NCBI RefSeq assembly: GCF_004010195.1
Contig: NC_057758.1
Span: 1,939,542-1,982,142, forward strand
From: Chiloscyllium plagiosum
Lineage: Eukaryota
Length of the DNA: 42,601 nucleotides
Reading direction: 5' to 3'
Below the pieces are notes generated by a model. The model saw only the letters and a program-made list of their open reading frames with translations, did not search any database and was not told the DNA's origin. Numbering within the stretch: position 1 is the first letter of the stretch; each line of letters opens with the position of its first letter. A program made the translations under genes and the position numbers. Of this stretch, positions 125 through 41,720 are shown piece after piece.

Positions 125-287
125 ACGTGCAAACTCTACACAGACAGTCGCCCATAGCTGGAATCTAACCTGGGACCCTGGTACTTTGAGGCAGTATGCT
201 ACCCAGTGGGTAGCATACTGCCTCAAAGCACCAGGGTCCCAGGTTAGGTTCCAGCTATGGGCGGCTGTCTGTGTAGAGTTTGCACGT
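125..287. repeat. 81-bp-arm inverted repeat (fold-back of the SINE 5' end), 1-nt centre at 206
   Basis: 125-205 is the reverse complement of 207-287 with 3 mismatches. Confidence 0.95.
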
Positions 288-5600: not shown

Positions 5601-5604
5601 GAGG

Positions 5605-6391: not shown

Positions 6392-6580
6392 TGTCCTCCT
6401 TTTAAGCAATGCACTATCAGTACACAAAAGCCCTCATTTTACATCCCCTTAGTCTTTCATTGTTAGTACACTATGATACACATGCATTACATTGGCCATA
6501 ATGATACAACCATGCACAAATACATTCTATTTCTGTCTGTTTACTCTTGCAACGAATGTCTCCGTGTCTCACCTAAATCT

Positions 6581-6618
6581 CGACAATGCATTGGCACTCA
6601 CGTGCCAATGCATTGTCG
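6581..6618. repeat. Perfect 17-bp inverted repeat with a 4-nt loop
   Basis: cgacaatgcattggcac-tcac-gtgccaatgcattgtcg. Confidence 0.95.
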
Positions 6619-9600
6619 GCATGTACACTTTCCAAATTGAATGGCTGCAATGATAAGCTCTATCTGAACAGTCTGTAATATTTGTCCTTAAATTTCTCTA
6701 AAAACGTTAATAGGTTATGATCGGTATATATAATTGTCTTAGACATATTACTGTCAACATATTTTTTTAATATTCTAACACCAACACCAAGCTGACCGTC
6801 CTTTTATTAATCGTCCAACATTTGTGTTGATGAACCCCAATTTCCGGGAAAACATTCTTCTCGTCTCCTTCCTGTAAGAGGAGAGAACTGAGGCCAAAAT
6901 GATTTGCATCGATACCAACCTTGAATCAGCTTTGTCCAATATTGGGGCAGCAGTTAACAGCTCCCAGGCTGCCTAATGCCTTTTGACAGTCTTCCGTCCA
7001 CTGAAACTCCTTGTATTTCTTTACTAATTGAGTGAGTGGAGCAGCCACACTGCTAAAATTCGGTACGAATTTCCGATACAACCCACTGAATCCCAGGAAT
7101 CACAAGACTGTTTTTTTCATTATGGTATGGGAAACCTTTATTTTTACATTCCGTAGGGCTTTTTAGTCAGGTCCGATAAAATGCCCCAGGAACGTGACGT
7201 AAACTTTGGTAAATTCAATCTGTGCCAGGTTTATCACCACGGCTGCCTCTGAACTTTGATCGAGTAATTTTGATAAATGCTGCAAATGTTCTGTCTATGT
7301 CTGACAAAAGAACGCCAGATCATCGATGTAAAGCACATAATTGGGTGATCCAATGACGTTATTGGTTAGTCTTTGAAATGTAGAGGGCACATTTCCCATG
7401 GGAAAAGAATAACTTTAAATTGATACAGTCCAGTCGTTGTTATAAAAGCTAAAACTACCTGCTCTTTGGGAAAAAAAGATACCTGCCATTTTCTTCTGAG
7501 TAAGTTCAACTTCGAAACATAAGATACTTGTGCAAACGTCTCCATACAGGACACCAAATGTGACCTCAGATATCAATCAAATTTTGTCCTGAATTGACTT
7601 TGCGACAGTCCTCAAATTACTTAACTGTGCCATCTGGTTTTGGCACCATTGCTATGGGTGAGCTTGACTTACTGTAGCTCACTTCGATGCGTTCATCATA
7701 GGGCCTACGTTTAACTTCCTTTTGAACATGTGTCAACTTTACAGAGTAAGTACTACAATGAGTTTGTGTAACTGGTAGAAAGTCAGGAATTGCAAGAGCA
7801 CTTCCCATATCTACAACATGCATAATTAGGTTATTACTTCCCAGCTTATTTCCACATATCTCGCTATGCAATAACAATAACTCTGCCAGGTGGCTTTGAT
7901 TTTCTTCCAGGATTTAATTAAATAATTTATTGCAATTTTTGAGGACTTCCTCGGTGTCCAATTTAATTTGAGGAATATTCAATTAAGCATTTTCTGAACT
8001 TAGTTCTTCAGTATATGTTTTTCACAGTAACGCATTCTCTTTGAGATTTCCTTCCCTACCAATACACATTTGTAGCTTACTGACATGTAACATGCAGTGA
8101 GATTTCTTTATGTCTGGAGTCCTTATCAAAAAGGTTCGCCTTGTTCAATCTCCTTTTGTATTGATGAGGTCCACAAAATGATGTTTTAAATGTTCACCTA
8201 TCATTGGAATTAACGCTAAAGCCTCATACCGGTTAGCAAAACTGTGAGTTTGTGATTTCTTGTTTGTGTCCTGTTTCATCATGCGCTGTGACATTTTAAT
8301 TGCCCCCTATCCCACTTACCCATTGTAATGGAACGTTCCCTACCATTTGACACAAAGTCCAAATATGTGGTTTCTGCATTCCGATTAATCAATTTCTCCT
8401 TAATTAATTTACTTCATGCCGAGAAACTCATTCAAATGGTCTCAGTTTAGTCAATTCATTTGTTGTATCTCCAATAGTAAAACGTACAACTGGAATTCAC
8501 TGATCCCAATCAGCTGGACAGTCTTGACTATCACCCTTCACATGTCTTTAACGTCTGATGCAACATTACTCGCGTTCCCTGCTTTCCTGCCTGGTACGAA
8601 CCGGATTTGAATTGTTTTGTTCCGAAAATCTCTATAGCTTGCTTGAATAATTTTGACATTATGTTTGACCCTTGATCTGACTGTATCTTTGTGGAAGTCC
8701 GTATCCAGTGAAAAAAAAGGTAACTCTTCTAAAATTCTTTTAGCTGTGATATTACATTATGGAATGGCCTCTGGAAATGTAAAGGTCACTCCAATCTTGG
8801 TTGACAAACAACGATTTGCAGTTTTTTGTTTCGTTAGGTTCACATTCAATCATTTAACACTCCTACAAAAGACTCTTCAAATGCAGCAAAACATAATAAA
8901 GCTGCTGGTTTTATTACTGTCTGCTGTTTTCCAATTAGGTAAAATGGTTACGGATCTGGCAAAATTCAACTGCATCCTTACGCAGTCCAGGCCAGTTACA
9001 ATGCTTTTGTGTTTTACCTTGAGTCTTTCTTGCCTCTAAATTGACTCTACCAGGATTTCTCGTGCGACCCACAACACGTTCTCTCAAAATTCCACTGGTA
9101 ATATGAAATGATAAAATTATGCCCATTTGTCATCTGCCTGAATGTGTGATAGTCTTCATTTCCTCATTGAGGCATCATTTTTAAAATAGTAGCATCAGGG
9201 ATTCCCTTAGATTCGCTTCCATCTATTCTTTTGGATACAATTGCTTCCGTTTTTCACTTTTAGATGAAACTCAGATACATTTCCTGAAGTGAAGATGTTC
9301 ACTTTGTCTTCTATCTGTTTCTGATCTGCCTGAATCATTTGATTTATTTGATCCCTAATAATTCTACTTCATCTTTCCTATCTGTACTCTTTATTAATCG
9401 TCCAGTTTCAAATGGTGACTTCGTGATTTGTTTACCAGACAGTCAGGAATAATCACAGAATATGTTTCCTTTAATGCCTCAGTTGCGTGATTTTTCACTG
9501 GCCTTTCAACCGCATTTTGCAACACTCCTAGCTGTGACCCATCTAGCAAGGACAAATAGTATTCCTGGAAACGAAAGTTTTTTTTTTCCCCAAGGATTCG

Positions 9601-11275
9601 TACAACCACTTCTCCACTTTTCACTGGACATTCTAGCATCACTCTACATAATTGAGCAATAGATTCCTCACCATTAATTCCACGTTATTTTTTCGTAGTC
9701 GGCCGGTTGAGTTACATATCTCTTCATCTCCAACATCAAAAATTGACATTATCTTGCATCTCTTAATACAGCAAACTCTTCAGCTGCTGCTCCTGATCTA
9801 TGTGAGAAAAAGTCACCTTCACAGGTTCATGGTTTAAGAGATCTTCCTTAACTAATATCCAAATAGCTAGTACATTCTGTTGAAGCTTTTTATGCCTCAA
9901 CTGTGCTTTTCTTTCTCCGTTAAACAAAATTCACTAGCTTGCCCCGTTTTCATCCAACCGTCTTCCCACAGTGCTTATTTTAACTCAACGACATTGTCAA
10001 TTCGTTGAAAACACCGGGGCACTTTAACTTCTCTTTCCACTTCATGGGTTTCCCTTTTACCCTGCAGTAAATGATCCTTCTGGTCTTCATTGCGAACAAC
10101 TTTTCCTTCTCACGTGAGTAGTTCATTTTTACTCAATTTCTATCTCTCACTGATTGAAGTTTTCGTTGGAAGCCAAACGTTGTTTTATGAGCCAACGCAT
10201 AATCATCAGCAATTTCAAATCCAAATCTTGCCGTTGTCACTCTTTGCTCTTCCAAATGTGTTATCACTACTTCAGAGAGTGAATTTTTGAACTCATCCAA
10301 AGTAATTGTCTTTCTAAGGCTTGCTCAATTTTAATGCCTGCATCCACGTACCCAAATTACTTTATTTGATCGTTTCAACCTCAATGTATGCTTGACCAGC
10401 ATCCCTGCTTAGGTTTCTGAAAAGTTGGCTGTTGGCTTCTAACACAAGCCGATATACACTTAAGATGTCTTTCTTCGTCTCCTCATTCTCTTCAGATACC
10501 TCCTCTGATAGTGATGCGAATACCTCACTGGCTCTAACTGTGAGCTTTGACTGTATATATAAAAAAACAAATGGTCACTGGCCACTTCATTTTTCGGGCC
10601 ACCTTCACAAATGAGATGAAAAAAGGCTTCTACACATTTTGCATCAAAATTAGCCAATGCTTCGATATTTTTAAGTGGAAGACGAACAGGATTTTGGCTA
10701 CGATGGTATGTGCATCCTTACTAGCTTCCATATTCAGGTTTCCTTCTGAAATCATCTCCACGCTATTAAGCCGATTTCTCCCTCTAACTGCCAATTTTTG
10801 AATGTCTACTCTCTTATTTTTTCTTGTTTTGTTGAAGCAATTCTGTCTTTTTATTTTCACTCTGCTTTTAAACGTAATTCACACTGCTTCATTCTCTCCT
10901 GTTTGTCTTCCTTTTCTTTTTAACTCAAACAACTTCATTTTCAAATGAATTGTAGACATCTCTAAAGATTCTGATAGCGTTTCCAGCAAATTAAAATGCT
11001 GAACTATTGCTTTATGATCTCGCATGTTCTCGTGGATGAAGGTATCTCCATCCAGCTTATTTGCCAATTCCAACATAATTGCCTTGTTCACCTTTTGTAA
11101 AGCCTTCAAAGTCACATCCTTCATTCCCGGCCAAGTCTCGGTGCCTGATGAGCCAAGTCGACACCAAGCACTGCTGAACCAATCGAATGCATCAACGGGA
11201 ATAAAAGACAACAACGCCTACCACTCGCGGCCTTTGAGTCCAACGACCATAATCACAATTGGAACTATAGAATAC

Positions 11276-11956: not shown

Positions 11957-12263
11957 GGAGCGGCACGGTGGCACAGTGGCACAGTGGTTGGTATTGCTGC
12001 CTCACTGCACCAGGGTCCCAGGTTCGATTCTAGCCTTGGGCGACTGTCTGTATGGAGTTTGCACATTCTCCCCGTGTCTGTGTGGGCTTCCTCTGGGTGC
12101 TCCGGTTTCCTCCCACAGTCCAAAGATGTGCATGGATTGGCCATGCTGAACGACCCATAATGTTAGGTGGAGGGGGATGGGTCTGGGTGGGTTGCTCTTC
12201 GGAGGGTCGGTGTGGGCTTGTTGGGCTGAAGGGCCTGTTTTCACATTGTAAGTAATCTAATCT
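11957..12263 (+). mobile_element. tRNA-derived SINE (HE1-like)
   Basis: A-box-like 'tggcacagtgg' (locally duplicated), B-box 'ggttcgattc', conserved core, (aatct)n tail. Confidence 0.9.
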
Positions 12264-12269
12264 TAATAT

Positions 12270-14353
12270 GTTTTGACGGGGTACGGTCTGGTCCGTCAAT
12301 AACAAAGTGTACTGCTTTGATAATGCCTTCACTTGCCAGCCTTCTGAATTCTATCTCTGCTTTAACACATAAGGCAAACGGCACTGAATGGGCCTTGCAG
12401 AATCATGGAACTGTTTGCTGGTCAACTACCCGGGTTCGCTTGGCTCATTTGATAGTCTTTAGACCATCCAGAAACGTCTTCGGGTTGTTTAATTAAAACT
12501 TCATTCAAGCAGTATTTTCCAACTAGAAACATATTGAGTCAATCAACGTACACTTTTCTGAACCAATTTCGCCCCATCAGTGTCGGACGTGAGTCTTTTA
12601 TTACAATCCGTGCTAACTGAAACAGTTGTTTCTCATACAAAACAAGAAAAGACGCTGAATGATGAATCTACACATGTTCTGGGTTTATCCCAGTTGTAAA
12701 GCAAACTTAATTGCTGGCCTCCCGAATGAATTTTGTGAAAGATTATTTCTGCAATCAGTAATCGAGCCGTGCCAGCATCACGATTCATTAGAATCGGGTG
12801 ATCATTTAACCAGACATTTATTTTGAATTGTTCTCATTTGTATGCCACAAAACAAATTCACTGTTCAAAACTAGGTGTCGATGTGTTTTTCAGGCTATGC
12901 ACTCTCCTGGATACAGACGTATGAGTTTTCTTCCTCATGATTGTTTGGGACTCTTTTGCTGTCTCGATTCGACACAATGGCAGCAAGGATTGGAACCTGA
13001 AGAATATGTTAATCCGTTTGGCTGAGGAATGGCTTTGTTTGTGGTTTTGCTGTGAGCAGGCCTAAAGTTCCTCTGTTTGGGATATATCCAAACTGAAGCT
13101 AGACAGTTGCCTTCACGCAAGTAGTGTCCCCCAAGCCTATTCAGTCTACCGAAGGTGTCTTCTGCCATCAGCATACCCAGTAACTCATAAGTACTAATTC
13201 CCGCATTTTATAATGACAAAGCCTGTTGTAATGACCGTTTCATGTCCAGTTGTGCGAAATAGGATGAGAGGTGACTTGATCGATTTATACAAGGTCATTA
13301 GAGGCTGGGATAGTCCCAGACGTTTTTCCCAAGGATGAAATGTTTATCACAAGGGGGCATAGTTTTATGGTAACAAAAGGAAGATTTAGTGGAGATGTTA
13401 GTGGTCGGTCTTCACCTAGAGCGTGGTGGTTGAATGGAATATACTGCCAGCAGTGGCCGTGAAGTCAGAAAAATTAGAAATAAATTAAGCGACTCTTGGA
13501 CAGCTAATAAAATGGAGGTTATGTAAGTTAATTTGATGTTTGAGTAGGATAAAAAGTCGGCAAAATTCGAGGGCCAGAGGCTTGTTCTGTGTTGTACTTT
13601 TCTATTTTCTATGTTGGATGTTTTTAGCTAGTAGGCGCCTGTGCCTGTTTCCATGGTTAAACCCACATACCAAACGGTGCCCCAGCATCTTCTTGAGATT
13701 TAACCCAATCGTAGTAATCTCGTCAATGGTGCCGATACATTCTCCCTTGCTTCTCAACCTCCCGGGGAAAACCGATAATGTCTCAGAATTAAAGGTGGCT
13801 TGGTGATCATTATGTTCATCAGCTAAATCTGTCAATTCTTAAAGGTTTTATTATCAGACGCCCTAGGAAACGTTAAGCTCCTAATCACTGAACCAAACGA
13901 GCGGAACAAGCTGTCAAGAGAATTACTCTTTGCTTTTCATCTGCCCCAATATCATGTGCTCATAAAATATAATTCAGTCTTTTCACATATTGGTCTCAAT
14001 CTTAATCAGCAGGATTGAATTAGTCAAGCTTTCCAAATAATTGCATGAGTCAGAAATGTGTACCTCAACTCCAAGCATGCAAGGGACTTGCATCAGGACA
14101 GCATTTCTTTTCCACTCATCGCTACGGAAATCATTCCACAAAAGCCAGTATCCTGTCACCAGTCATCCTCCATTTTCAAGTGAATTATACTTCTCACTGG
14201 TCGAACTTACTCAGAGTCAGCGGTCAGATTGAATACAATATCTGTTTTTTTTGCTCTTATGTGTCAAGCTCTATGATTTGGCCAAGTTAAAAACCCAATC
14301 AGGGAGTGCTATTCTGTGAGGTCCGCCTGGCCAAACTCTTTGCAAACATTACA
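12270..14353 (-). mobile_element. gag: Gypsy family A 5' part: LTR (14163-14353), PBS, gag, protease, start of RT; interrupted by a CR1
   Basis: PBS-like TGGTGACAGGAT (14150-14161, tRNA-Ser-type); gag ATG at 14046 'MQLFGKLD'; 'MLGHRLVCGFN...RRLLA' (13602..13835); protease region 'PILMNRDAGTA' and 'LMGRNWF'; 'KAHSVPFAL...EGIIKAV'. Confidence 0.8.
13250..13615 (+). mobile_element. CR1 3' fragment inside the Gypsy gag
   Basis: 'aggatgagaggtgacttgatcgatttatacaag' (RMRGDLIDLYK) and 'aagggggcatagtttt'; ends in a ttctat-type tail. Confidence 0.8.
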
Positions 14354-15384: not shown

Positions 15385-18300
15385 GTGAAGGAAAGAACAA
15401 AGGCCTTTGACACTCCAAACCTGCATCTTTCCAGAATCTCTATCTGAACCTGTCGCCTTTTTTCCGAAGGATCTGTACCCATCTGCTCTCTGCCCATTTA
15501 TGCACTTGTCTAAATCCAAATTAAGTGACGCTATCGTGCCTGCTTCTACCACCTCTGCTCACAATGCATTCCAGGCACCCACCAACTCTGTGTAAAGAAC
15601 GTTCCATGTACATCTCCCTTAAACATTTCGCCTATTGCCTTGAGCTTGTAATCTCTAGTAATTCAATTCCCTACACTGGGGTAAAGTTTATGGCTATCCA
15701 ACCTGTCTATGTCTTTCGTGATTTCGTCGACCTCAATCAGGTTCCCGCTCAACATCCGTCTCTCTAATGAAAGTAATCCTAATCTATTTACCCTCGATTC
15801 ACAACCTGCGCCCTCCATAAAAGACGGCATCCTGAATGAACCTCCTCTTCATCCTATCCAAAACATCCGCATCCTTTTGCAATGTGGCAACCCGAAACAT
15901 ATGCAGCAAACCAAATATGATCTAACCAAAGTCCTACACAACTGTAACTTGACCTTCCTTCACTTGCATTCAGTACCTAGTCCGATGAAAGAAAGCATGC
16001 CATATGCTTTCTTGACCACTTTATCGTGCTGCCTTGCTGCCTTCAGCTTCCAATGAACTTCAACACGGAGCTCTCTCTGTAGATCAATTTCCCCAGGGCT
16101 TTTGCAATTACTGTATAGTTCGCACTTGGAGTGAATATTCCGAAATGCATCACCTCGAATTTTCCCGGTTTGAACTCCATCTACCATTTCGCTGCCCAAC
16201 TCTTTAATGTATTTATATTCTGCTGCCTGCTCCGACAATTCGCTTGACTATCTATAACTCAACAAATCGTCGGATCATCTGCAAACTTGCTAATGAAACA
16301 ACCTATACATTCCTCCAGATTGTTTATGTTTCTCATAAACAGTAAAGATCCCAACACGGATCCCTGTGGAACACCACTGGTCAAAGTCCTCCATTTTAAG
16401 AAACTCCCTTCCACTACTAATCTTTGTCTCCTGCTGCCCAGCCAGCTCTCTGTCCTTCTTCCGACAACAACCTGGACCCATTGCGAATTCACTTTCTCCA
16501 TCAACCTACAATAGGGAACGTTATCAAAGTCCTCACTGAATTTTATGTGTATGTCATCCGCAGTCCTTCCCTCAGCAACCATTTATTTGACTTCTTCAAC
16601 GAATTTTATTAAGTTGGTAAGACATGACCTTCCCTTCAAAAACTATTTTTTTCTATCACTCATTGCCAATTTCCTTACAAACTTAAAGAAATACTTTCCC
16701 TCAGTATATTCACAGCTGGCGCCCTCCATAATAGGCGACATCCTGAATGAACCTCCTCTTCATCCTATCCAAAGCATCCGCATCATTTTGCAATGTGGCA
16801 ACCCGAAGCATACACAGTATTCCAAATATGGATTATCGTGCTACACTCCTTAATAAATGAGCATTAGCAATCCTCCGGCCGTCCAGGACGTCACCCGTGT
16901 TCAATGATGCTGCAAAAATATATATTAAGGCCCCAATTATTTCCTCTCTCGCTTCACTCAGTCACGTGTGACAGATCGTATTAAGACCCGGGGACCTGTT
17001 CACCTTAATGCCTTTCAGGACATACAATACTTGCTCCAACTTATGCCCACTTGAACTAAAGTAATCAAACATCTATCACTAACCTTAGCATCCATCATGT
17101 CACTCTCCTTGATGAATCACCATGCAAACTTCGATTTAAGAATCTCACACATTTTCCTGAATAGAAACATACCTCTCCTCCTTTGATTTTGAGTTAGCCA
17201 ACCCTTTCTAGATTTGCTTTCTTTCTCCTTACATATGAATAAAACGCCTTGGGAGCTTTGTAATTCTGTTTGCTGAAGATATTTCATAACCCCCTTCAGC
17301 CGTCTTAATTCCTCGTTTTACATTGATCCCATTCTCCCGATGTTTCTCCAAAATGTGTCAGTTTTCCGTCACCTAGACATTATGTATGCTTCCTTTTCCC
17401 TTTTAGCTAGTGTCACAATTTCACTATCATCCATGATTGCCTAATCTTGCTTTTCCTATCCCTCATTTTCTCGGTGACGTGTCTGGTCTGCATTCAATCA
17501 ACTTCTCCTGGAAAGCATCCCAATGGCAAATGCGGATTTTCCCCTCTAACAGCTGATCCCAATCCACATTCCACATCTGCTGCCGAATTTTGGTATCGTT
17601 GATCTTCCCTTAGTATAGCAGTCTTCCATTCTTACCACTCTCGTCCATGAGTATTATGAAACTTCACGAATTGTGATCGCTGTTCCCTAAGTAATCGCCC
17701 ATTGAAATTTCAAAAACCTGGCTGGGTTCATTCCCCAGCACGTGGTCCAGTATGAACCCTTCCAGAGTTGGACTATTTACATTTTGCTCGATGAAATCCT
17801 CCTGGATGCTCCTTACAAATTCTCCTCCATCGCGACCTGTAACACCAAGTGAATCCTAGTAAGTGTTTGAAAAGTTAATATCTCCTATCACATTCACCCG
17901 GTTCCTCCTACATATTTCCATAATCTGTTTACATATCAGTACCTCTATCTCACGCTCGCTATTGGGAGGCCTGTTTTACATTGGAAGCATTGTTAACGAA
18001 CCCTTTCTATTAGTGATCTCTTCCCATATTTCCTCAATGCTAGAGTCTTCCATAGTGTCCTCCTTCAGCACAGCTGTGATATTCTTTCTGACATAATGCA
18101 ACACATGTACCTCTTTTACTTCCGTCTCAACACTGCCTGAAGCATCTATATCCTGGGATATTTAGTTGCTAATTATGCCCTTCTTCGTAATAGCAATAAC
18201 ACCATAACCCAGGTATTAATCCAAGCCATTAGTTTATTTGCCTTACCTACGACCATTCTTGCCTTAAAACAAATGCACCACAGAACACCTGTCCTTTTGC

Positions 18301-21241: not shown

Positions 21242-24200
21242 ATGGAGCACTCGGTAATCTTAATAGATAGAACGTATATATTACCCCATTCTGGCAGTTG
21301 TCGGTGTTATTGGTAACGGTTTCACTACGCTGTTTATTATTACCGATAATATTTAACTGTACGATCCTGTTTATGATTAAACTTTAATGTACTCAGGAGG
21401 CTTCATTCTTTTCGAAGCCAAACATTTTGCCAGAGGCTGGAACATCTTTTTTCTGTCGACCGAAACTTATGAAACTAAATTCGCAAACAATGTAAATGAT
21501 CTTGAATCCAAACTGAAGCATTTGTTCTGAATGTCCCTGTTTGGTAAATACCATGGCATCTATTAGTAAAATGTACAGTTGAATTCGATAATAAATATCT
21601 GACGGTGTCTATGACCTTCTTATTATTATTAGAAATGCATGCTACTGTTGCTTAGACGTCAATGTAAGCCGATAGGTGATTACATTTCCTTGATACCGGT
21701 CTTTTATATGTCTGGAGATTACCTTATATAAACACAACTTCCGATTCTTGTTGACCAACTGAACCTGCTCTCATTTGGTGCAATTTTGAATGACTATAAT
21801 CTGAGTATACTGAGCAGCATTTTTTTACAACATTTTAGTGTGTCATTCAAAACTGACACAGAAGAAGTTATGTTCACTAGCCTCAAGCAATCGATGTCAT
21901 GTTTCTTTTCCACTGGTTCAGTTAGTGACAACTGTTATTATCTTGGACAAATATTCAAACTACATTTTATCTGTTGCTAGATGGAATGTATTTATATGAA
22001 ATGAATGTTCGAATTATCTTCCGATGATTTGGTAAAAATGTATTGAGATAGGTCTATGTTTGATTGTGTGCATTATCTGACATTTCGTTTAATTAACAAC
22101 AATGTTACAAAGTAGACACTGCGTACAATATGAAGCTGATCAAAAAGCTACTGTTTTTACAGTCATTCAATATGATTTTGCGCCCTTGCTTGTTTCATTG
22201 AGATACATGTGACTTTCCTCTCGCATGTTTATAAGGCACGCTCAGTCAGTAAATAATTCATCATCATCTCTACTGTTAATTGCAAATAAAAGTAAATGAA
22301 AGTTACTTCTCTTAAGACAATTGTTTAGTCAACGTGAAATCGAACTAAAGACTTGTTACAAATCTCTTCCTTTCCACTTTTTCAGAAATATAGTTATCCA
22401 TAGATATAAACGTATTTGTATTTTACCAAGATCTCTGCTTCCCTCTTTCTGTTTCAATTCTATCAACAATTTCCCCGTGGATGTAAAAGAAAACAAAATT
22501 AAATGCTGAAGCAACGTTGATTATTCACGCAGAAATTTGTTTCACCTTTCTGTAAACTGAACTGTTAACCTTTCAGTAGGAGAAAATAAGGACTGCAGAT
22601 GGTGGAGATCAGAGTCGAAAAGTGTGATGCTGCAAATGTACAACCGGTCAGGCAGCATCCGAGGAGCAGGAGAGTCGACATTTTGAGTATCGGCTATTCG
22701 TCTGGAATAAGAGGTGGCCAAAGGGGGCTGAGAGATTAATGCGAGGGGATGGAGTTGGGGGGAAGGTAGTTGGAAATGTGATGGGTAGATGGGTAGAGGG
22801 GCTGATGGCGATACGTTGGAAAGGAGCATGGAGCAGTAGGTTGGAAGGAAGATAAAAGGTAGGGCAGTTGAAAAAGTCCGTGCTGAATTGAAGGTTCGCT
22901 CTCAGATAAGGTGGGAGGAGGGGAAATGAATAAACTGTTGAAATCTACATTGATCCCATGTGGTTGGAACGTCCCAAGGTGGAAGGTGATGCATTCTTCG
23001 TCCAGGGGTCGGGAGGCGAAAGTTCGATGGTAGAGGCGGCCCAGGACTTGCATACTGTTGGCAGAGTGGCATAGAGCATTAAAGTGTTCAGCTCCAGAAC
23101 CGTGGGTTCTTAACTGCATAAAGTTTCAGAATCCTATGTTGGGTCCATGGCCCTCATCAAACCACTCTCCACTCATGTTACTTCCCCTTGCCAACGCAAG
23201 AAGTGCAAAACCTGCCCCTCTATCTAATTCCCCAAAGGATTCTTGCAAATCAGTCAGGTATTTACGATTACTTCGACACCTATCATCGACGGTGTCTTTT
23301 TCTCTTGGTGTGGTCTCCTCTGCATTGGGGAGACAGGGCGCTAAATAGTGGAATGTCTCAATAAAAATATCTGCACCGCACATACTAAAAAATCCCACCA
23401 CCCTATAGCTGAACACTGTAAACCCCCCTCCCTCTCCTCCAACAACATACGTGTCCTGGGCCCCCTCCACCTCCAAACTCTAGCCACTCGATGCCTGTAA
23501 AAAGAATGTATCATCTTATGAATTGGGACTCTCGAACCACACGGGATCAATGTAGATTTCATAAATTGCTTCATTTTCCCTCCACCCACATTATCCTGGC
23601 ACCAACCGTTCAATCTGAACCAACCTCTTGAACTGTCCTAGATTCCATCATACTTCCCATCTATCTACTTCACCATTTTTTCCAACCTATCATCATTATA
23701 CCCACCTCCATATACCTATCGCATTCCCAGTTATCTTCCCCCAGCCCCATTCTCTCCCATTTATCACTCAGCCTCCTTGGTCGAAACCGTCATTCCTGAT
23801 AAAGAGATTTTACTCGAAACGTTAACTCTCCTGCTCCCCAGATGCTGCCTGACCAGCTGTGCATTTCTATCACAACAGTCTTCGTCCTTGATTTGAAACC
23901 AGATATAAAATTTGTGAGAAAGTACACTTTGCGGGTACAAACCAGAGGATGTTTCTTTCAATGAATAATGTAAACCAAGTGATGTTCAATCTGATGCTAT
24001 ATTTTTCATTTATGTACGCCCCTTCTCCTCCATTTGGTAAGTTTGACTTTTTCTCCAGTAAAAGCCTTTTGCAATTTCGCACTTCATATATTCTCTTAGA
24101 TATACGCAGCTCCTCAACGTTGTTAATATGCTTGTTTACTTCGCCCAACTTCCAGCCCGCCACTTCCAAAATTGATTGAAAACACGTGATGGGCATATCT

Positions 24201-31814: not shown

Positions 31815-33541
31815 GAGCAAAGAACAAAGAACCTTACACCACAGGAACAGGCCAGTCGGCCTTCAATGCCTGCGCCGATCCAGATACCTGTCGCCTATTT
31901 CCTAAGGATCTGTATCCCTCTGCTCTCTTCCCATTCTTTTATCTGTCTGGATACATTTTAAATGACGCTATCGTGTCTGCATTTACCACATCTGCGGGCA
32001 AAAATTTCCGGACACCCACTACCCTCTGCATAAAGAACTTGCCACGCATATCTCCCTTAAACATTGCCCCGCTCACCTCGAGTTCATGACCCCTTGTAAT
32101 TGTGTCTCTCATTCTGGGAAAATGGTTTTTGCTGTTCAAACAGTTTATACCTCTCATGATTTTGGAGACCTCAATCATGTCCAACTTAAACTCTGTCTTT
32201 CCAATGAAAATAATACTAATCTACTCAACCTCTCTTTCTAGCCAGCTCTGTCCATATAAGGCGTCATCCTGGTGAAAATCCTCTGCATCCTCCCCAAAGC
32301 ATCTACATGGTAATGTGGCGATCAGAACAGTACGCAGCATTACAAATGTGGCCGAAATGAAAGTCTTATGCAACTGTATCATGAGGTGCCAACTGTTGTA
32401 CTCAATACCTTGACCAACGATGGAAAGCATGCCGTGTGTCTTCTTGACTACGGTTTCGAGCTACGTTGTCAGGTTCAGGGTATAGTGGAGCTGAACACCC
32501 AGATCTCTCTTTTCATCAATTTTCCGAGGTTTTTTCTGTTTTCCGTACATTTCACTCGAGAATTGGATGTTCCAAAATGCGTCACATTGCATTGGTCGGG
32601 ATCGAATTCCATCTGCCATTTCTCCACACAACTTTTCAATTTATTTCAATTCTGCTGAATTCTCTGATATTCCCTTCACTGTCTGCTACTCCACCAATCT
32701 TAGTGTTCTTTGCAAACTTGCTATTCAGACCACCTGTACCTTCCTCCTGAATATTTGTGTCTGTCGCAGACAGCATTCCAGCTGGGATCCCTGTGGAATA
32801 CCACTGGACTCCATTTTGAGAAACTCCCTTCCAATACTTGTCTCTGTCTCCCGTTGACAAACAATTTCTGTATACACCCAACTAGTACAACCTGGACCCC
32901 ATACGACTTCATTTCTCAAACAGCTTACCATGACGAACCTTATCAAACGGCATATTGAAGTCCTATGACATCTACAGCCCTTCTCTTATCAATCAACTTT
33001 CTCACTTCCTCAAAGAATTCTATTCAGCTGGTAAGATATGAACTTCCCCGCTCAAAACCATGTTGATGATCACTGATACGCCGTTTTACTTCCAAATGGG
33101 AATAGATGCTATGCCTCAGCATATTCTCCAGCAGATTCCCTACTACCGACGTCAATTTCTGTGATCTATAGTTACTTGGATTATCCCTGCTATCTTCTGA
33201 AACAAGGTGAACAACACAAGCAATTCACAAGTCTGATGGGATGTCATCCGTGTTCAAGAATGCAGCAAGGATATCTGATAACGCCCCAGTTCTTTCCTCT
33301 CTCGCTTTCCTCAATAATCTGGGATAGATCCCATACAGCCAAGGGAGTTGTCCAACTTCACGCCTTTTAAAATGCCCAACAGTTTCTCCCACCTTAGGTC
33401 AGCTTGATCTCGAGTAATCAAACTTCTATCCTTAACCTCAACATCCGGTATGTTCATCTCCTCAGTGAATACTGATGCAATGCACTCAATCAGGATCTCA
33501 TCCATTTTTTTCGACTCTGCGCATAAATTTCCTCCTTTGTC
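31815..33541 (-). mobile_element. 5'-truncated CR1 LINE with 6-bp TSD atcaaa (31809-31814 and 33542-33547)
   Basis: (aaagaac)n tail; 'DMIEVSKIMRG...TRGHELEV'; 'SGIPQGSQL'; 'SKFAKNTKIGGV'. Confidence 0.85.
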
Positions 33542-33661
33542 ATCAAACCGAGTCAGAGTGAGTACAGTTCGCCAATTGCATTACTTCACAAACCTGATGG
33601 GACTCAAGGATGTTTTGTGGGCTCTCACAAGATCGATGCCAAAACACAATCGGACTCATAT

Positions 33662-34230
33662 TATCGAAAATAAAGAACATTAGGGCATGTGAAGGGTTAA
33701 AGCATAAAGACCACTGTTGGAATATTACAAGTTGCCTATAGAATGAGGTAACAAATAGCTAATCAGCAATTAGTAAAGACAGACAGCGGCTAGAGACCGT
33801 TGTGGCAGAATGATGACAACCAATATCCAATCAGAAGTTAGCAGAACCAGCCTGAGGCTGAAGACCACTGTGACAGATATGATAATAAATATCTAATCGT
33901 GACATAGTGGAATAGAACTAAGTTTGACGTAAGAGATATCATAATGGTAGAAGTAGAGAGAACAGGAACTAACGCCATTGGTATCTGACATGTCTGCAGT
34001 GAGATAGCCCTGACTAAAGAATTGGACACACTGACAAGCCTAAAGAAACCCTGGAATGACAAAGTATAAAGAATAACGGACCCCGAGATTTGAGGTGGGG
34101 GCGGGGGGGCGGGGATGCGGCTGTCAGAAATTCGCCGAAATTCGCATTCTGAATGTCAAGGCTTTCGTTTGCAAATAAAAGATTATCTTCTTGAGGAACT
34201 CTGTGCGTCTCGTACTGATTCTTTCTGACA
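33662..34230 (+). repeat. ERV 5' LTR
   Basis: Direct repeat of 37858-38424 (~80-85% by eye); TATAAA at 34065-34070; AATAAA at 34174-34179. Confidence 0.92.
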
Positions 34231-34234
34231 AATT

Positions 34235-34252
34235 TGGTTCTGCGAGCAGGGT
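34235..34252 (+). promoter_or_regulatory. ERV primer-binding site, tRNA-Ser-like
   Basis: TGGTTCTGCGAGCAGGGT vs the complement of vertebrate tRNA-Ser(TGA), TGGCGCAGCGAGCAGGGT (15/18); 4 nt after the LTR. Confidence 0.75.
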
Positions 34253-34576
34253 CGTGAAGAGACCTACCTGAAAAGGGGGCAGCAGCAACAGGGCGCTTCT
34301 CTGTCCGACGGGCGCATTCCCGAGACTGATAGAATAAGGGTACCCAATAAAAAGACGCAGCACGTTTGCTGCTAATTCTGATTATACTTTGCTGGTTTTT
34401 GGTGGTCGTCGGGTACTCGGAGTTGCGGGAAACTGCTGGAGAGTCTCTCCGATCCAAGATGCAAAAAGCAAGTGGTATATTCCAGTTGAAGGAGATGTGC
34501 AGGGTTGTTTAAGAAAACTGTGCATTGGGGTAAGGAGTGAATAAGGACAGAATCAAAGTAATTGGCTTAGTTAAAT

Positions 34577-34773
34577 TTTCCCGTGATGCTCAGAAAAAGT
34601 CCACGTGGTGTTAGTAAAACGTACACATGGTGTTAGTTAAACGTCCACATGGAGTTAGGAAAAAAATCCATGTGGTGCTAATAAGAAGTTCACGAGGTAT
34701 TGAGAAAAATTCCACATGGTGGTCATAAAAGTCTACTTGGTGGTAGGAAAGAATCTACTTGGTGAATATAAAA
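34577..34773 (+). repeat. ~9 x 21-23-bp tandem array in the ERV leader, consensus ~GTCCACRTGGTGYTAGNAAAA
   Basis: Units include gtccacgtggtgttagtaaaac, gtacacatggtgttagttaaac, gtccacatggagttaggaaaaaa, atccatgtggtgctaataagaa and ttccacatggtggtcataaaa. Confidence 0.9.
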
Positions 34774-34899
34774 CCCTGTAGATACCGTCTCATAGATAAT
34801 GGAGGCCTGAACGGATCGGGAAGAATAGGTATTGCTTTACGGGTGAGCCAAGCTGGCTGAGCAAATACGATGGAAGCAAACGAGAGCTAGGTAGAATCA

Positions 34900-35937
34900 A
34901 GAAGGCTTGTGGGCCACGGAGGAAGGTTTATGGATAGCATCTAACCCGTTGTTGACATATTTTATTTCAGAAGCACATAGATTGGATCACTGCGCAAGAG
35001 GGGAGGTGATAAGCAAGATATAACGGGATGGATTCTTTTCGCCATACTTGCAGGCCTCGGTGGACTGTATGTTGTCACAATGTGAGGTGTCTGTGCAGTA
35101 TAGTTTTAGAAAGGGGATAACGACCCCCTATAGGACACATACCAGTGCCGGAAGGGCCATTCAAGCATTTAGTGATTGATGACATGGATATGATCGGGCA
35201 GGTGAGAGGGAAAATGGACATGTGCGTGGTGATTGATAGGTTCAATCGATGGGTAGAAGCAGCCCCTTCCAAAGATGCAGGAGCAGGATCTAACCCAGTT
35301 GAAATTTCTGACAAATAAAGTTATCCCAATGTTTGGTATACTGTCGGAAATTAGTTCAGAAAATGGGTCTGCTTTCATTAAGAAAGTTGTTAAGTTGTTG
35401 TTGCAGACGTTGAAAATCAAACAGAAATTTGGATGCGTATATCATCCCCAGTCAGAAGGTATGGTGGAAAGGGTTAATGGGATATTGAAAGCCAAATGAA
35501 ATATGATTTGCATGAGCACCAGCCTTAACTGGATCGATGCGCTGGCTTTAATGAGTTATCACATGCAGACTAACCGCATCAACAATTTAACAACACATGA
35601 GTTGCTCACATGCAGGCCTATGCCATTGCAAGCTTATAGCTTAATCAATATTTGCAGCAGCTAACCATGATACATAGGGGACTATCCACATACAGGAAAC
35701 ACAAAGGGAGCTGACAGCTGACAACGATGAAGAACCTATTAAGCCCGGGGATCGGTTGTACGTACGGGTCTTCTGGAGGTCGTGGAATGAGCCAAGAGGT
35801 CGGTACCTTTCGTAGTGACGGTACCTTTCGTAGTGACTAAGGCATTACCTACCGCCATTCAAGTGGAAGGACGACATGTATGGTACCACATTAATCATTG
35901 TACTAAAGCTCTCCCACTTGGCGCAGTTAGACTCTGA
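34900..35937 (+). pseudogene. pol: Retroviral integrase (pol 3' end), frameshifted
   Basis: HHCC-like 'EAHRLDHCARGEV...QCE..'; 'GPFKHLVIDDMDM'; 'IDRFNRWVEA'; 'FGILSEISSENGSAF'; 'YHPQSEGMVERVNGILK'; C-terminal 'AIQVEGR..WYHINHC'. Confidence 0.88.
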
Positions 35938-36264
35938 AGCTGAGGTAAGTGGAGCTGAGGCCGATGAACTTCGACTCAGACAGGACACGCAGGAAGCTAG
36001 TACCATACATCAGGGTACCGAACAAGATACCGATGCAGTTCTTAGGAACACTGATCATTCCGGAAGTGAGAATGATGCAGATGCAGAGATTAGCCCTTTT
36101 TCTGGCAGCGAGGATGGGGGAGGCGTAGTGGAGACCCTGATGCCCCCCCCTCCCTGATGGCCTCAGACTTTGAGACCATTAACATGGCAGACCTGGCCTG
36201 GAGATGTTAGGGCTACTCAAACCGGGAGACGTAGAGGCATCAGGAGTGCAGACCTTGCTGCTCT

Positions 36265-37560
36265 GACGTGAATACGTGCCTATAACAATCAGTGGTACCA
36301 ATGGCCAAATTATATGGCCGTAATGATAGCTAGGCAAGCCTGCTTCTCGTGCACCTCGGCGAACCCTCGTACTACATCAGCGATATGCCCTATAACTCAA
36401 AAACTCGCACTCAATGGCGTTTGCGAAACACTTGCCTACCTCTTAATCCGAATGGTTCATCAACTTACACGCAATCCAATTGCCTTTTCTTGTGCCTCCT
36501 TCTCAAGTCCTTCACATCCTATCAGCAGGATGATGTAGGAAGGCAGCAACTCCAACGGCGGTGCAGCTATAGAACCCCGTTGTCCACCAGCAAGATGAAT
36601 TATACATTCCCTATGGCTGCCTTTAGAATACGGGATGGATTGAGTTTTGAGTCTTTTAAACGAAATGGTTCCAAGTCAATAGGTATTTCAAGGGTCTCTG
36701 TGGGAACACGATTGAGTTCGAGGTGGATAACCACGTTTGGGGCTATCCTGAACTCTCAACACGTCCGACTGACAGACACTTGGTGGTTGTGTGGTAAGAA
36801 ATACACTGCCGCTGACTGGATTGGCAGCTGTGCCTGTGTGATGCTTCTGCATGAGATCGTTATATCGCCACAGACGCAGCTTGGCGCTCCGTAACAGTCA
36901 ACTATGTACTGCACTAATTGACGGTATGTCCCTGATCCCATGATTCGGATCGATAGTATAGGTTAGCGAAGAGTTATCCCTAATCAGTTTAAATCCCGCA
37001 ACGAAGTTGCCGCAGGCTGAGAAGCTTTCATACCAGTAATTGGGTTGAGCAAAAAATGTTGAATGGATCAATTACATATACTACAACCAGCAGAGATTTA
37101 TCAACCAGACTGATGATGCCCTTGTGGCCTTCAGAGAACAATTGGCTGCCACCCACCAAAATGACATTGCTGAACACACAGGTCTTAGACTGGATAGTGG
37201 CAGAACAAGATGGTGTTTTCGTGATGATTGGTGAGCATTGCTGTACCTTCATACCCAACAGCACCAGCTTTGGTGCGTATTTTACTGAAGCAACGGAAAA
37301 GCTAAACAATCATACACAGGAGTTAAAGGGATTTGGTCTTCAGGCATTTGAATGGTTGACTAATATGTTGGGGTCTTGGGGTGCATGGTTCGTCAAGATT
37401 GGTCTTATTGTAGGTGCTGTATTACTTGACATCACCTTTTTTTGTTGTGCCCTGCAGTTTATAAAGTCTTTTCAAGGTCGTGTTACTACATGGCAACTCA
37501 TATTCATTTCAACAAAACCCAGATGTTCTTCCTCTTCTGATGGAGCCTCGCCACTCTACC
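36265..37560 (+). pseudogene. env: Retroviral env (gamma-type TM), disrupted
   Basis: SU 'NNQWYQWPNYMA...CFSC' and 'DTWWLCGKK..WIGSCA'; TM 'IPNQFKSRNEVAAG', 'NVEWINYIYYNQQRFIN', ISD 'LLNTQVLDWIVAEQDG', CX6CC as 'FVMIGEHCC', membrane span 'WFVKIGLIVGAVLLDITFFCC'. Contains stops and frameshifts. Confidence 0.9.
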
Positions 37561-37857
37561 ATTACGATCTGACAACCGCCTCGGTACAAGGAGCGTGTTC
37601 ACATGAGGACATCGATGTTACTTCTGAAGAACGCGTGGATTCCAGATTGCGAGGGACTTTGGGTCTTTTTTGCTGCTCTGGTTACTGGAGGGCAGCTACT
37701 TGGCCCACGGCACCCCAGGAACGGAGGAAGAAACCTTAAGAATCAGACCCCGAAATTTATTGGGTCCGTTTTGGGGCCTGTAATATTTTTATTGGGTACA
37801 AGTGGTCTGGACTTATTGTTTTCTTTATAGAGAGACCAGAAGGTCTCAAAAGGGGAA

Positions 37858-38424
37858 TATGGAAAATAAAGAACAAAAGGGCATGTGAAAGGTTGAAGCA
37901 TAAAGACCACTGCTGGAATATTACAAGGGGTATACACCACTGTGAGAATGAGGTAACGATGAGCAGAATGAGGTAACAATGAGCTAAATAGCAATTGGTA
38001 AAGACAGCCGGGGACTAGAGACTATTGTGGCCGGATGGTGACAGCAAATATTTAATCAGAAGTTAGGAGAACCAGATTGAGGCTGAAGACCATTGAGGTA
38101 GATACGATAGTAAATATCTAATCGTGATGCAGTCGAATAGAACTAAGTTTGATGTAAGAAATACCAGAGTTGCAGAAATAGAGAGATAACATGAACTAAC
38201 ATCATTGGTTTGTGACGTGTCTGTCGTGGGATAGCTCTGACTAACACAATTGGACACACTAATAAGCCTGAAGAAAACCTGATAACAAAAAGCATAAAGA
38301 ATAATGAACACCTAAGTTCAGGGGCAGTCAGGAATTCGCATTGTGATTGTCACGTATTTTGTTTGCAAATAAAAGATAATCTTCTTGAAAAACTCTCTGC
38401 GTCTCCTGGTAATGCTCTATGACA
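37858..38424 (+). repeat. ERV 3' LTR
   Basis: Follows PPT aaaaggggaa; AATAAA at 38368-38373; ends tgaca. Confidence 0.92.
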
Positions 38425-39553
38425 ACCTCCAATTCCAAGATTGGAGGACGGTATAAAGAAAGTTGGGCAAGCCAGTTACATCACAAATTTGGTCTTACTG
38501 CATGGTACTTCGCAAATATCCTTATCAGAGAATGCGAAAGATGTTTCACCATTTGAAACGCCAAAACGGCTATATCAATTCAAATTGATGCCTTAAGGAA
38601 CGAAGAACTCACTAGCCACATTCCGAAGGCTCACGAACACAGTTGTAGCTGAGTTAACAAAATGTGCAGTCTGTTTGAATGAGCCAGTGATCTTTACTGA
38701 ATCATGCAACATCATATGATAAAGTTGGTATAGCTTTTTGAACGATTAAGAGATGTAAAATTGGTAACAAACGAAAACGAAACTGATTTCGTGAAGGCAG
38801 AGGTGGCGTACTTGGGATATAACGTCGGTGATGGAAGTTTGACCCCAAGGAATGCAAAGGCGAATGCCTTCCAGGAATTTCCACGACCAACCTCGAAGAA
38901 ACTTCGCTTTCTGAGAATGAGCAGATTCGACCGGAAAAATTGTTCAAAACATCAGCCATGTCGCGGCACCGTTAACAGACTTAGTTGAAGAAGAACGCAA
39001 GATTTCCGGTGGAAGAATAATGTCAGGTTGCATTTGACAATTTCAAAACAGTATTAATCACTGCACCAGTTTTAGCTTCACGAAGGTTTTTTGAAACCCT
39101 TCGAATATACATTCGATGCTAATGACATAGGAGTTGGATCAGTACTGCTACAGGAAGATGATCATGGAATTTAACAGCCATTTGGCTGCCTTTCAAAGAA
39201 ACTCAACACCTACCAGAGAAAATGCACTACCAGTGACAAGGAACCGCTGTGTTTGGTACTGGTCTGACAACATTATAATTTTTATGTGACGAACAATGTG
39301 TCAGACACAGTTGTGCACACAAATCACAATCTTCTTACATTCTTGGAACGATTTAAAGACAAGAGTATGACCGCATTGCGTTGGAGTTTTATGTTACACA
39401 CTTTTAATTTACAAACTGTATATACTGCGGGTCGTAGAAATGTGAACTTAGATGAACTTCCTGTGTAAAAATTTGAGGGGATTAAGAATGAGGAATGAAA
39501 ATGAGCTATCCTTTAATTATGATTGATCATTTCTTTTTCTAAAGGGGAGGAAC

Positions 39554-40310
39554 TATGAAGTTGAAGGTGTTAACGCGGCTATAAGAGAGACTGAAAGCTG
39601 TTTTTCATTGAGAGCTCACAAACATCTGTCATATGACGAGCTAGCAGTCTGAGAGTGATGTGTAAAATATGTAACATGTGGCTTTGAAAAAGATGCCGCA
39701 GTTGTTTGCTATTTTGAAAACAATTCAAATTTAAGCAATCCGTTTCAATCATGCCCCAAGTTACTAAAACACAATCGATTTTGAATTTATTGTTTTTCCA
39801 ATCTCAAACCAGTCAGACGATCCAATTTTTGGGGCGGAAAGACGCAGTCATTTTGGAAGTCAAGCAGAGAGTAAACGGCCATAGAGAGAGACTGCCATTC
39901 AAAACAATCTGTCAAAGGTACCTTTTCTCATTAGAAACATCTTTGCAGTAAAAGACAGAAGACGACCCAAGGAGGCCTTCAGCTGAAAGCAGGAGGACAC
40001 CTCAATTGACAGACCTGCGATTTTGAAATTAAGTTGATGTAATTTTAATATGTTCTTAATTGGAGCAGTATATTGTTATAGAGTTATAACCAGACAACAA
40101 ATATTTGAGAGTAAGTGGGCTTAGAGTTGTAGTTAGATGGTGTTTAATGTTCACTTTTAGAGTTAAGTCAGAAATTGATACTTCTTTTTTCTTTAAGCAC
40201 TGGAATTTGGGCGTTGTGTGTAAATCATACTTTACCAGATAACGAGGCGACGTGAGCTTTTCTGGGAGTTCGATTTAATTAGAAGAAGGATTCACTGCAG
40301 TGTCATAACA
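39554..40310 (+). repeat. 3' LTR of the Gmr1-type Gypsy
   Basis: Preceded by the PPT; first ~90 bp match 31395-31490; ends in CA. Confidence 0.75.
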
Positions 40311-41720
40311 AGATCATCCTTCCATATCAGGACTTTTCCGAGTGAACCGTGTCTGACCTGCCTACATGGAAATGTTATCATTCCTAAAATAAAAAAAAAA
40401 CTGTTCACATTATTCCAGATATGGTCTCACTAGCATCTTGTACAGTTGCCGGAAGACTTCCTTCCATCACTGTCCCTTGCCTGGAAATAATGGTCAACAT
40501 TCTTTAACATTCCTGCTTTCTTGCTGCCCTGTGCACGAGGTTTATGTGTTACATGCATAAGTAACCCAAGTAGCTGTAGCTTTCTCAATTTAAATAATAT
40601 TCTGTTCTTTTGTTCACACTTCCTAAGTGAAAAAAATTACATCTTCTTACATTATACAACGTTTGCCAATATACATTTCCCAGTGTCCTAAACGATCAGC
40701 ATCTCTCTTCCAAATGTTTGAATACCATTCAAACAGTCTTTCCAGTAATCATTGTGCCGTCTGCATTTTTGGTGACAGAATGCCCATTTCCTTACGAAAC
40801 GTCGTCAATACCATCATTCTGCCTGAACTCGTGAAATTTCTCTCTGAATTCCTGTGCCAGTTTCACCCGTCTTTCTTGTCTCACCTCTTCGTTTGTCCCA
40901 CCTAATGCAAGAATAGGCAAAACCCTCTGATTTACCTTTAGCAAATCTCCCCTCCAGGATTTGTTTCTGTCTCCTGTGCAGGTGCAACTTGTACTTTTAC
41001 TATAGTTGACTTCTATGCCAAAACAGACTCCAACGATCGAAAAACAATCTGAATACGTGCGACTGCATTGGCTGCTCAGCCAAGCTTTCATCGCTCCTAT
41101 CCGTCAGTTTCAATTCTTACTGGCACATGACAGCAGTTGCAATATTTGGATTAGTATCGTTGAGGTCCTGTTTTCTAAACTTCTTCCAAACTCTGCAGGA
41201 CGTTAGCCCCGCTTCTACCGAAATTGTTGTTACCAATGTGTACAATGACGTATGACAGTTCACACTACTGTTTGCGACTCTGCTGCCTCAGTTCTGAGAC
41301 GTTCTTTGATCCTGGCACCAGGTAAGCAACACACGGTCCTGAAGTCCCGTTCGTGCCCACATAAACAATTGTGTATGCCCCAAGGTAGAGAGTCCTCTAT
41401 CACAATTGCTCGCTTGGAATTTATTATATGTTGTGCCTCCGCAGAGGTGGTCATGCAAAAAAACAAAATATTTTGTTTTCTCCTTCTGTTTTCCCCAGAA
41501 TTGATCACATCCCTCCAGAACCTTACTGAAAAAGCTGTCTTTGTCTGAGTGGAGGGTAGCTACAGGTAAATCGAATACTTCCTGCCTACCTGTCCCGCCC
41601 TTCTCCCACCTCTGACCTTCCTCCTCAACTTGGTCACGACCTGCCGGACTTATACCCGCCCTACAACGTTTTGTTGCAGACTGCCAATGTGACATTAGCC
41701 TCCTCAATTTCTCTACCCTC
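40311..41720 (-). mobile_element. Degenerate CR1 pieces (ORF2, then ORF1 esterase region)
   Basis: 'ctgttcacattattccagatatggtctcac' from ORF2; 41260..41508 'RAIVIEDSL...RDFRTVCCLPGARIK' matches the CR1 ORF1 SGNH-esterase motifs. Confidence 0.7.

Follow-up and report, generated by a model that had tools for sequence, protein, structure and literature searches.

Within the window, that is, the whole 42,601-nt stretch of Chiloscyllium plagiosum DNA that was analysed, a provirus of 4,763 bp (33662–38424) comprises two LTRs, a primer binding site (PBS), a polypurine tract (PPT), a broken integrase (IN) and a broken gamma-type env (Table 1). The paired LTRs, with a PBS after the first and a PPT before the second, identify it as an endogenous retrovirus (ERV). 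Its interior measures 3,627 bp, in line with the ~3.6 kb of the initial annotation, which had described an ancient ERV devoid of gag-pro-RT but with IN, env and the cis signals retained; this description is supported, and the element is decayed. No Rfam family and no tRNA gene was found.

Table 1 Features of the provirus and its insertion site
Feature	Position	Strand	Basis
Gypsy-type LTR retrotransposon, RT start (left half of interrupted element)	33527..33661	+	tblastn match of Gypsy-type proteins stops at 33661
Target-site duplication, left copy	33658..33661	+	2/4 identical to 38425-38428; length from RT register
5' LTR, 569 bp; poly(A) signal 34174-34179	33662..34230	+	LTR pair alignment
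Primer binding site, tRNA-Ser(TGA) type	34235..34252	+	15/18 vs tRNA 3' end given in PMC12217144
5' leader with 22-nt tandem array at 34594-34764 (7.8 copies)	34253..34789	+	repeat analysis
Deletion junction, leader joined to RNase H/integrase boundary, ~5 kb missing	34765..34820	+	Pol homology start; bridging contig
Integrase pseudogene: N-terminal zinc-binding part, core, C-terminal domain	34790..35910	+	homology to Pol proteins
Acidic low-complexity Pol tail	35911..36157	+	comparison with relatives' Pol ends
env pseudogene, gamma-type	36185..37739	+	homology over 36185-37598 and motifs
Polypurine tract	37848..37857	+	purines 10/10, directly before 3' LTR
3' LTR, 567 bp; poly(A) signal 38368-38373	37858..38424	+	LTR pair alignment
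Target-site duplication, right copy	38425..38428	+	2/4 identical to left copy; RT register
Gypsy-type element resumes, remaining RT and RNase H	38429..39492	+	RVT_1 E 4e-5; Ty3 RT E 7e-8

The LTRs, previously estimated to be ~15–20% diverged, showed a raw difference of 17.9% with evenly spread differences and six indel events, corresponding to a K2P distance of 0.207 over 535 aligned sites (bootstrap 95% 0.165–0.252). Two of the indels span ~30 nt each, and a G-rich insertion in the 5' LTR (~34095–34135) is missing from the 3' LTR. Both LTRs are bounded by TA...CA rather than TG...CA, and three RNA reads from related copies carried a poly(A) tail after 34194. One LTR may have undergone gene conversion by another copy. 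The PBS matched the 3' end of human tRNA-Ser(TGA)-1-1 at 15 of 18 positions (primer from PMC12217144; a zebrafish probe is given in PMC11574265), consistent with the Ser-like PBS proposed initially, and the PPT claimed there was recovered as an uninterrupted run of ten purines.

A single insertion interrupts the reverse transcriptase (RT) of a Gypsy-type element exactly in register. In tblastn searches with Gypsy-type proteins, the two flanks represented exactly consecutive RT residues in 12 of 44 proteins, and three further ones were in register, while a PDB search with the 40-residue left flank gave no match. Four extra bases separate the LTR end from the resumed Gypsy RT, as expected of a short target duplication at one integration site; its length of 4 bp is fixed by the RT register. 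That just two of these four bases are still identical between the copies, together with the two ~30-nt LTR indels, might point to an assembly artefact or to recombination of two unrelated proviral halves, which would also inflate LTR divergence. However, the flanks continue one RT in register and an independently assembled contig (X1, 34728–35160) bridges the internal junction with three differences. We thus regard this explanation as largely refuted and hardly tenable.

The junction connects the leader to the start of the integrase, and the missing stretch corresponds to gag, protease, RT and RNase H (~5 kb, as sized against the complete retroviral genome L011). Homology to Pol begins at 34790–34820, directly past the RNase H end, and none of 76 Pol proteins produced a match of at least 30 bits lying wholly inside 34231–34800. 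The initial annotation had placed the junction at ~34780–34900; a junction is indeed present, slightly to the left of that interval. Its breakpoints lie ~25 nt or less from the end of the leader array and ~10 codons or less from the RNase H/IN boundary. The array folds better than its shuffles (z –3.75), a value to which the internal palindromes of the repeats can alone give rise. Only two of the retrieved proteins carried at least 60 residues ahead of the protease; neither was a close Gag, and neither beat shuffles as a probe for Gag remnants in the leader, which the frames of L011 did not match either; a few first gag codons may remain there.

A 3' breakpoint lying at the IN boundary, with an in-frame ATG at 34799 near the integrase start, would also suit the integration of a reverse-transcribed, spliced subgenomic RNA whose leader had been joined to an acceptor at that point. 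Yet a donor-like site at ~34530 and the array behind it are retained, so that the cut does not coincide with the usual leader donor. Furthermore, the ATG can be a point change, with aliphatic residues occupying this column in the relatives, and env splicing in a zebrafish ERV takes out gag and all of pol. We therefore consider such an origin quite improbable.

The integrase reading frame is broken near 35.13, 35.29, 35.63–35.74 and 35.80–35.84 kb and contains several stops. Its closest relatives possess the MLV-like C-terminal domain PF18697, which the element matches at 35738–35910, indicating a class I-type integrase with an MLV-like C-terminal domain. The IN core is 64–72% identical to teleost ERV Pol proteins and, in a tree computed without WDSV, SSSV, ZFERV, SnRV and foamy viruses, fell into the same clade as these (support 96/89). 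All near Pol matches were class I-type fish Pol proteins, in a comparison that included no class III reference (SnRV-like, ERV-S/L or spuma-like). Two scans of the integrase against viral contigs yielded no match, and a metagenome scan yielded ten short loci, in none of which a close relative's leader, gag or env was present. The acidic open reading frame downstream of IN had been listed initially as a separate ORF. The stretch exists, but it turned out to be an ordinary Pol tail: 37 of 39 relatives end in an acidic tail (median 118 aa, D+E 19.5% versus 10% in the Pol core), and the tail of this element contains 24% D+E over 74 aa, although its frame here differs from that of the IN end. An accessory gene was accordingly rejected in favour of a low-complexity Pol tail common to the relatives, leaving none between pol and env. 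The tail and the env signal peptide, read in different frames, may overlap; the candidate peptide (~36033–36077) is weakly hydrophobic (1.01) and lies where the env profile does not match.

The env pseudogene exhibits the features of a gamma-type Env, namely a CxxC motif in SU (36341–36352), an immunosuppressive region, a CX6CC motif that is degenerate in this copy (37218–37244) and a membrane anchor (37404–37448), with frame breaks near 36.36, 37.05 and 37.16 kb. An env search with HMMER retrieved 69 matches; env relatives pass the TLV_coat profile, whereas the element's own TM piece reached an E value of 0.19 only. None of 146 candidates from a word-indexed database proved to match env, a scan of viral contigs with env returned one distant genome, and a PDB search with TM gave only weak syncytin-1 matches (E 0.11). 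The homologous frames contain 13 stops in 757 codons, where 0.10 substitutions per site would lead one to expect ~1% per codon; the decay of IN and env is as expected without selection. The element can neither replicate nor make protein today and is a genuine but long-dead viral insertion of a kind known from fishes.

The initial annotation had left the clade open on the grounds of the Ser PBS and TM. Taken together, the IN and env sequences indicate a class I fish ERV that combines a gamma-type Env with a probably epsilon-related Pol, and the element fits this known kind. According to bioRxiv 10.1101/2021.11.23.469661, such ERVs occur in six cartilaginous fishes, with >500 copies in three. 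As described there, they share with our element a simple LTR-pol-env organization without accessory gene and an Env with CxxC, CX6CC and membrane anchor; RT, the marker for Pol clades in that study (which names Env-C.1 and Pol-LE among its clades), is absent here. The supplements of that study may already list this family. Teleost Pol relatives (Triplophysa dalaica XP_056592765, Esox lucius XP_034150968, Fundulus, Centropristis, Nothobranchius and the Logan protein P0006) agree with our element in linker, C-terminal domain and acidic tail, but keep intact PR-RT-RH-IN frames in bony fishes, whereas here the frame is broken and PR-RT-RH is missing. The best env matches came from Chiloscyllium punctatum (GCC16320), Hypanus sabinus (XP_059831109) and Mustelus asterias (XP_078067312 and XP_078095343). 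With sharks and a ray as its nearest named env relatives, a chondrichthyan host is plausible. TM was identical to GCC16320 at 92 of 148 positions, and a rapidly computed tree made the two sisters (SH-aLRT 86, not starred). In Mustelus, long open env frames are kept at several loci, in contrast to the stops and frameshifts observed here.

L011 (IMG/VR, 10,207 bp) resembles the element in env type, leader repeats and gene order, with 68% env identity over 34 TM residues and 32–34% elsewhere. It differs in its IN core (just 35% identical), primer site, LTRs (99% alike) and the presence of gag-pol. ZFERV and SSSV, both absent from the named matches, presumably possess a similar env and leader repeat array. 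Among epsilon-like fish ERVs, ZFERV has been studied best, and SSSV is its exogenous relative (PMC4977317). The elephant shark CmiERVs are old chondrichthyan ERVs, two of whose three lineages are described as epsilon-like (PMC4422223). Compared by eye, the one complete element inspected among the three CmiERVs has a different PBS, leader, IN and env, and the LTR divergence is 0.024–0.033, versus 0.21 here.

Judging from the reads, the genome contains tens of related copies of leader, IN and env alike. Most of the X1 contigs that aligned to the stretch (554 of 733) were <90% alike. In ~2% of the RNA run X9, seven reads aligned, all of them <90% alike and therefore none from this locus. We consider it probable that the element is a single defective, decayed provirus whose deletion is confined to this copy. 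A class I fish-type retrovirus with epsilon-related Pol, gamma-type Env and a Ser primer would have integrated once into a germ-line Gypsy element, and the stretch from gag to RNase H would have been lost in one event, either by a template jump during the reverse transcription that made this copy or by a later chromosomal deletion. This reading is supported by the Gypsy flanks in register, the LTR distance, the stop load and the low similarity of most X1 contigs. Three of the ten metagenomic loci examined (L004, L005, L006) also show Pol relatives that lack parts, at other places than here, and zebrafish ERVs are mostly structurally defective (PMC8672886).

Alternatively, the deletion could predate the insertion, a short leader-IN-env genome having then spread to several loci by means of Gag and Pol from a complete helper. 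The retention of all cis signals despite the loss of replication genes, the tens of related copies for each retained part and breakpoints close to functional borders, which would suit a still packageable form, are in agreement with such a non-autonomous lineage. Helper-spread defective ERVs are common according to PMC10924933, and the precedents ETn/MusD, recKoRV and bovine D-type ERVK (same source) as well as EAV-HP (PMC4607243) resemble our element in that ends and cis signals are retained while the centre is lost. In those elements, however, one and the same defective form recurs in many copies, whereas the shortened form was seen here in one copy. The window contains no second copy, and no second copy bridged the junction among the X1 sequences listed (16 of 1,467 pieces and 19 of 722 loose ends). 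Moreover, survival of the cis signals follows from their terminal position, which no internal deletion reaches. X1 depth was low in the junction bins (27 and 56, compared with 68–485 in IN and 6–7 for a single copy), in favour of a loss in this copy, but it is not diagnostic, since stretches that all copies must share (36096–36389 and 37713–37857; depth 12–19) were equally shallow. On balance, the helper-dependent origin appears possible but doubtful, and a loss in this copy remains our preferred reading.

A more far-reaching scenario can be formulated, in which a helper-dependent leader-IN-env family, cut at the RNase H/integrase border, spread in cartilaginous fish ~100 My ago, combining a shark-type env with an integrase from a lineage still intact in bony fishes, then ~85–90% identical to present teleost copies. 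We judge it unlikely.

Regarding age, the LTR distance is consistent with the very old integration proposed initially from the slow substitution rates reported in sharks, and would place it at about 75–205 My ago if borrowed shark rates apply. A value of 376–573 My exceeds plausible chondrichthyan ages. This range, obtained with the rate of 2.2e-10 assumed in PMC4422223, was rejected as too old.

If the junction proved to be shared, the element would represent a non-autonomous ERV family in cartilaginous fish, of which we found none in the literature outside most subscription journals, Repbase/Dfam aside. Were that family to be helper-dependent and ~100 My old, it would document a dated cross-class jump with exchange of env, and an integrase clock that has run very slowly over the long term. 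The placement of IN inside a clade of intact teleost Pol proteins, with env nearest to shark envs, is relevant to the question of host switches from cartilaginous to bony fishes or the reverse. As a single insertion with known flanks, the provirus offers a clean clock point, and orthologous loci in sharks or rays could give a minimum age of the lineage. With it, a known group of fish ERVs that has been only thinly described gains one old and well-delimited member.

A retrovirus with a Ser primer, a class I integrase (IN) and a gamma-type Env integrated here and then decayed. Its two flanks are the halves of a single Gypsy-type reverse transcriptase (RT). Both were matched by 18 of 44 Gypsy-type proteins, and in 12 of these 18 residue n ended the left match at 33661 and residue n + 1 opened the right one at 38429, with three of the remaining pairs in register and three out of register. 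Four bases separate the LTR end from 38429, indicating a target duplication of 4 bp in which two of the four positions are still identical. The continuity of the RT halves across the element, together with this duplication, argues that the LTRs are a true pair, gene conversion aside. In the host Gypsy element, a purine tract (~39541) and then a likely LTR directly follow the RT-RNase H region, and the 5′ part has given way to minus-strand LINE-like sequence. Integrase precedes RT in its best-matching relatives (one with a SCAN domain), as in Gmr1-type elements. A second Gypsy-type element, separate from the host one, shares this order. No Pfam domain was found in the LINE-like repeat, whose tail may resemble shark CR1/HER1 elements, and long inverted repeats elsewhere are shaped like an old non-autonomous DNA transposon.

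Features of the element and of other repeats in the window
Feature	Position	Strand	Remarks
5′ LTR	33662-34230		paired-LTR alignment
Primer binding site (PBS)	34235-34252		18 nt, behind the first LTR
Array of 22-nt units	34594-34764		leader
env homology	36185-37598		split over four frame pieces
3′ LTR	37858-38424		paired-LTR alignment
Host Gypsy element	33527-33661 and 38429-40400		RT-RNase H to ~39492
Second Gypsy-type element	4333-10623	minus	three pieces
LINE-like repeat copies	1460-2460, 11970-12270, 15450-17130, 31890-33480		65-80% alike
Long inverted repeats	22608-23892		arms 275 nt and 101 nt, 70-73%
Inverted repeat	125-287		81 nt, near-perfect (96%), 1-nt spacer between arms, within repeat family copy

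The diverged LTRs, Ser-like PBS and polypurine tract of the initial annotation were all recovered. The LTRs differ by a K2P distance of 0.207 (bootstrap 0.165–0.252; 535 aligned sites), with evenly distributed differences and six indel events; the PBS agrees at 15/18 positions with the 3′ end of human tRNA-Ser(TGA)-1-1, compared against the primer sequence printed in PMC12217144; and ten purines immediately precede the second LTR. Whale/zebra shark dS of 0.061–0.111 over about 50 My, as given in PMC13100897, corresponds to rates of 0.6–1.1e-9 and an age of 75–206 My, in keeping with the very old integration proposed earlier, on borrowed rates that may not be the host's own. For one shark, a rate of 7e-10 per generation has been reported (PMC10587355). 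An age of 376–573 My, obtained with the rate assumed in PMC4422223, was dismissed as not credible. The 13 stops in 757 codons, versus ~8 expected, fit long decay without selection. The 22-nt units contain short palindromes, and their array (folding z −3.75) is a possible packaging or dimer signal; unit number varies among other copies, as seen from joints.

A full Pol relative (P0006; 1,385 aa, IN core 70%) matches the element only from residue 947 onward, the earliest match start among 76 Pol proteins is 34799, and none of the 76 gave a match of 30 bits wholly inside 34231–34800. When a profile spanning RNase H to IN is aligned, the match starts at 34790 and takes in no RNase H residue in any frame. 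These match starts, with no RNase H or earlier Pol homology, put the junction at about 34765–34820, and the described loss of gag-pro-RT with IN, env and cis signals retained thus stands. The distance from PBS to IN is an estimated ~5.7 kb in the complete retroviral genome L011 versus 0.55 kb here, so about 5 kb is missing; a few first gag codons may be kept. An independently assembled contig of sample X1 spans 34728–35160 across the junction with three differences, which nearly excludes an assembly artefact, a reading we consider extremely improbable; X1 may be the sample from which the window itself derives. Contigs of a second sample, X5, match most of the interior near-exactly, and none among those listed bridges the junction.

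Samples aligned at 80% likeness over 33450–37857 contained many relatives. In X1, 733 contigs aligned, 554 of them <90% alike, with a summed depth (not a copy number) of 68–485 over IN and 45–358 over env, the contigs of this locus having a depth of 6–7; X10 raw reads reached 5–34 over IN, versus about 1 or less expected for one copy. Both depths point to tens of related copies. In the RNA run X9 (about 2% read), seven reads matched, all <90% alike, and in three of them 34194 is followed by a poly(A) tail, ~15–20 nt past the signal at 34174–34179; some related LTR therefore serves as an RNA end. The junction bins were shallow in X1 (27, 56), but 36096–36389 (12) and 37713–37857 (19) were likewise, so that depth is not decisive. 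Among the 16 of 1,467 pieces listed no other copy bridged the junction, and of the 19 of 722 loose ends listed none marked it. We infer that the gag-to-RNase H loss is probably private to this copy. That a short form was spread by a helper seems rather unlikely; precedents appear in PMC10924933 and PMC4607243, and both breakpoints lie near functional borders, an unexplained hint that may be chance. Origin from a spliced RNA fits poorly and is improbable. We do not class the element as non-autonomous, a category defined by a shared deletion.

In an IN-core tree (40 rows, 113 columns) the element lies inside a clade (11 rows, 96/89) of Pol proteins that are teleost or unnamed, and the sole named shark Pol (Hemiscyllium) falls in a different clade; the tree holds no reference viruses or shark Pols of the element's family, and unnamed rows may be sharks. 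Identity of the element's IN to its clade is 64–72%, and clade members are 77–89% identical to the Triplophysa protein. By computation, ~80% of residues survive a neutral decay of 0.10 per site, so its integrase would have been some 85–90% identical to the clade's Pols at insertion. Scattering of cartilaginous-fish ERVs over the tree is already reported in PMC6001957. A metagenome contig (L004:3932-6637) holds a related pol remnant that begins inside RNase H and has a ~0.9 kb insert within IN; upstream of it, RT gave no match.

The acidic ORF, earlier listed separately, is the tail of Pol and lies out of frame here: its 74 aa contain 24% D+E, and in 37 of 39 relatives (three of the 37 being pol-env fused gene models) the IN C-terminal domain is followed by such a tail (median 118 aa, 19.5% D+E versus 10% in the Pol core). 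An accessory gene was accordingly rejected. The retained env is gamma-type as annotated, with CxxC, a degenerate CX6CC and a membrane anchor. HMMER found 69 env relatives; among ten looked up, Hypanus sabinus, Chiloscyllium punctatum and Mustelus asterias were the top named ones, teleosts next, and TLV_coat was found in 8/9 scanned, the exception being a short Hypanus piece. In a quick TM tree (37 rows; 37 candidates left out for short TM) the element adjoins Chiloscyllium with weak support. These env affinities suggest a chondrichthyan host. Three Mustelus asterias loci (P0053, P0119, P0120) have long open env frames of this type (550–572 aa), one named syncytin-2-like, and are candidates for a young family or a co-opted env.

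The element works like the class I ERVs, epsilon-related and carrying a gamma-type Env, that bioRxiv 10.1101/2021.11.23.469661 describes from six cartilaginous fishes. It very probably belongs to them, formal placement needing RT or reference trees, and its family may already be among those of the preprint. One complete CmiERV from the PMC4422223 supplement is, compared by eye, not the same. The element is real and well delimited, a new member within an already known ERV group.
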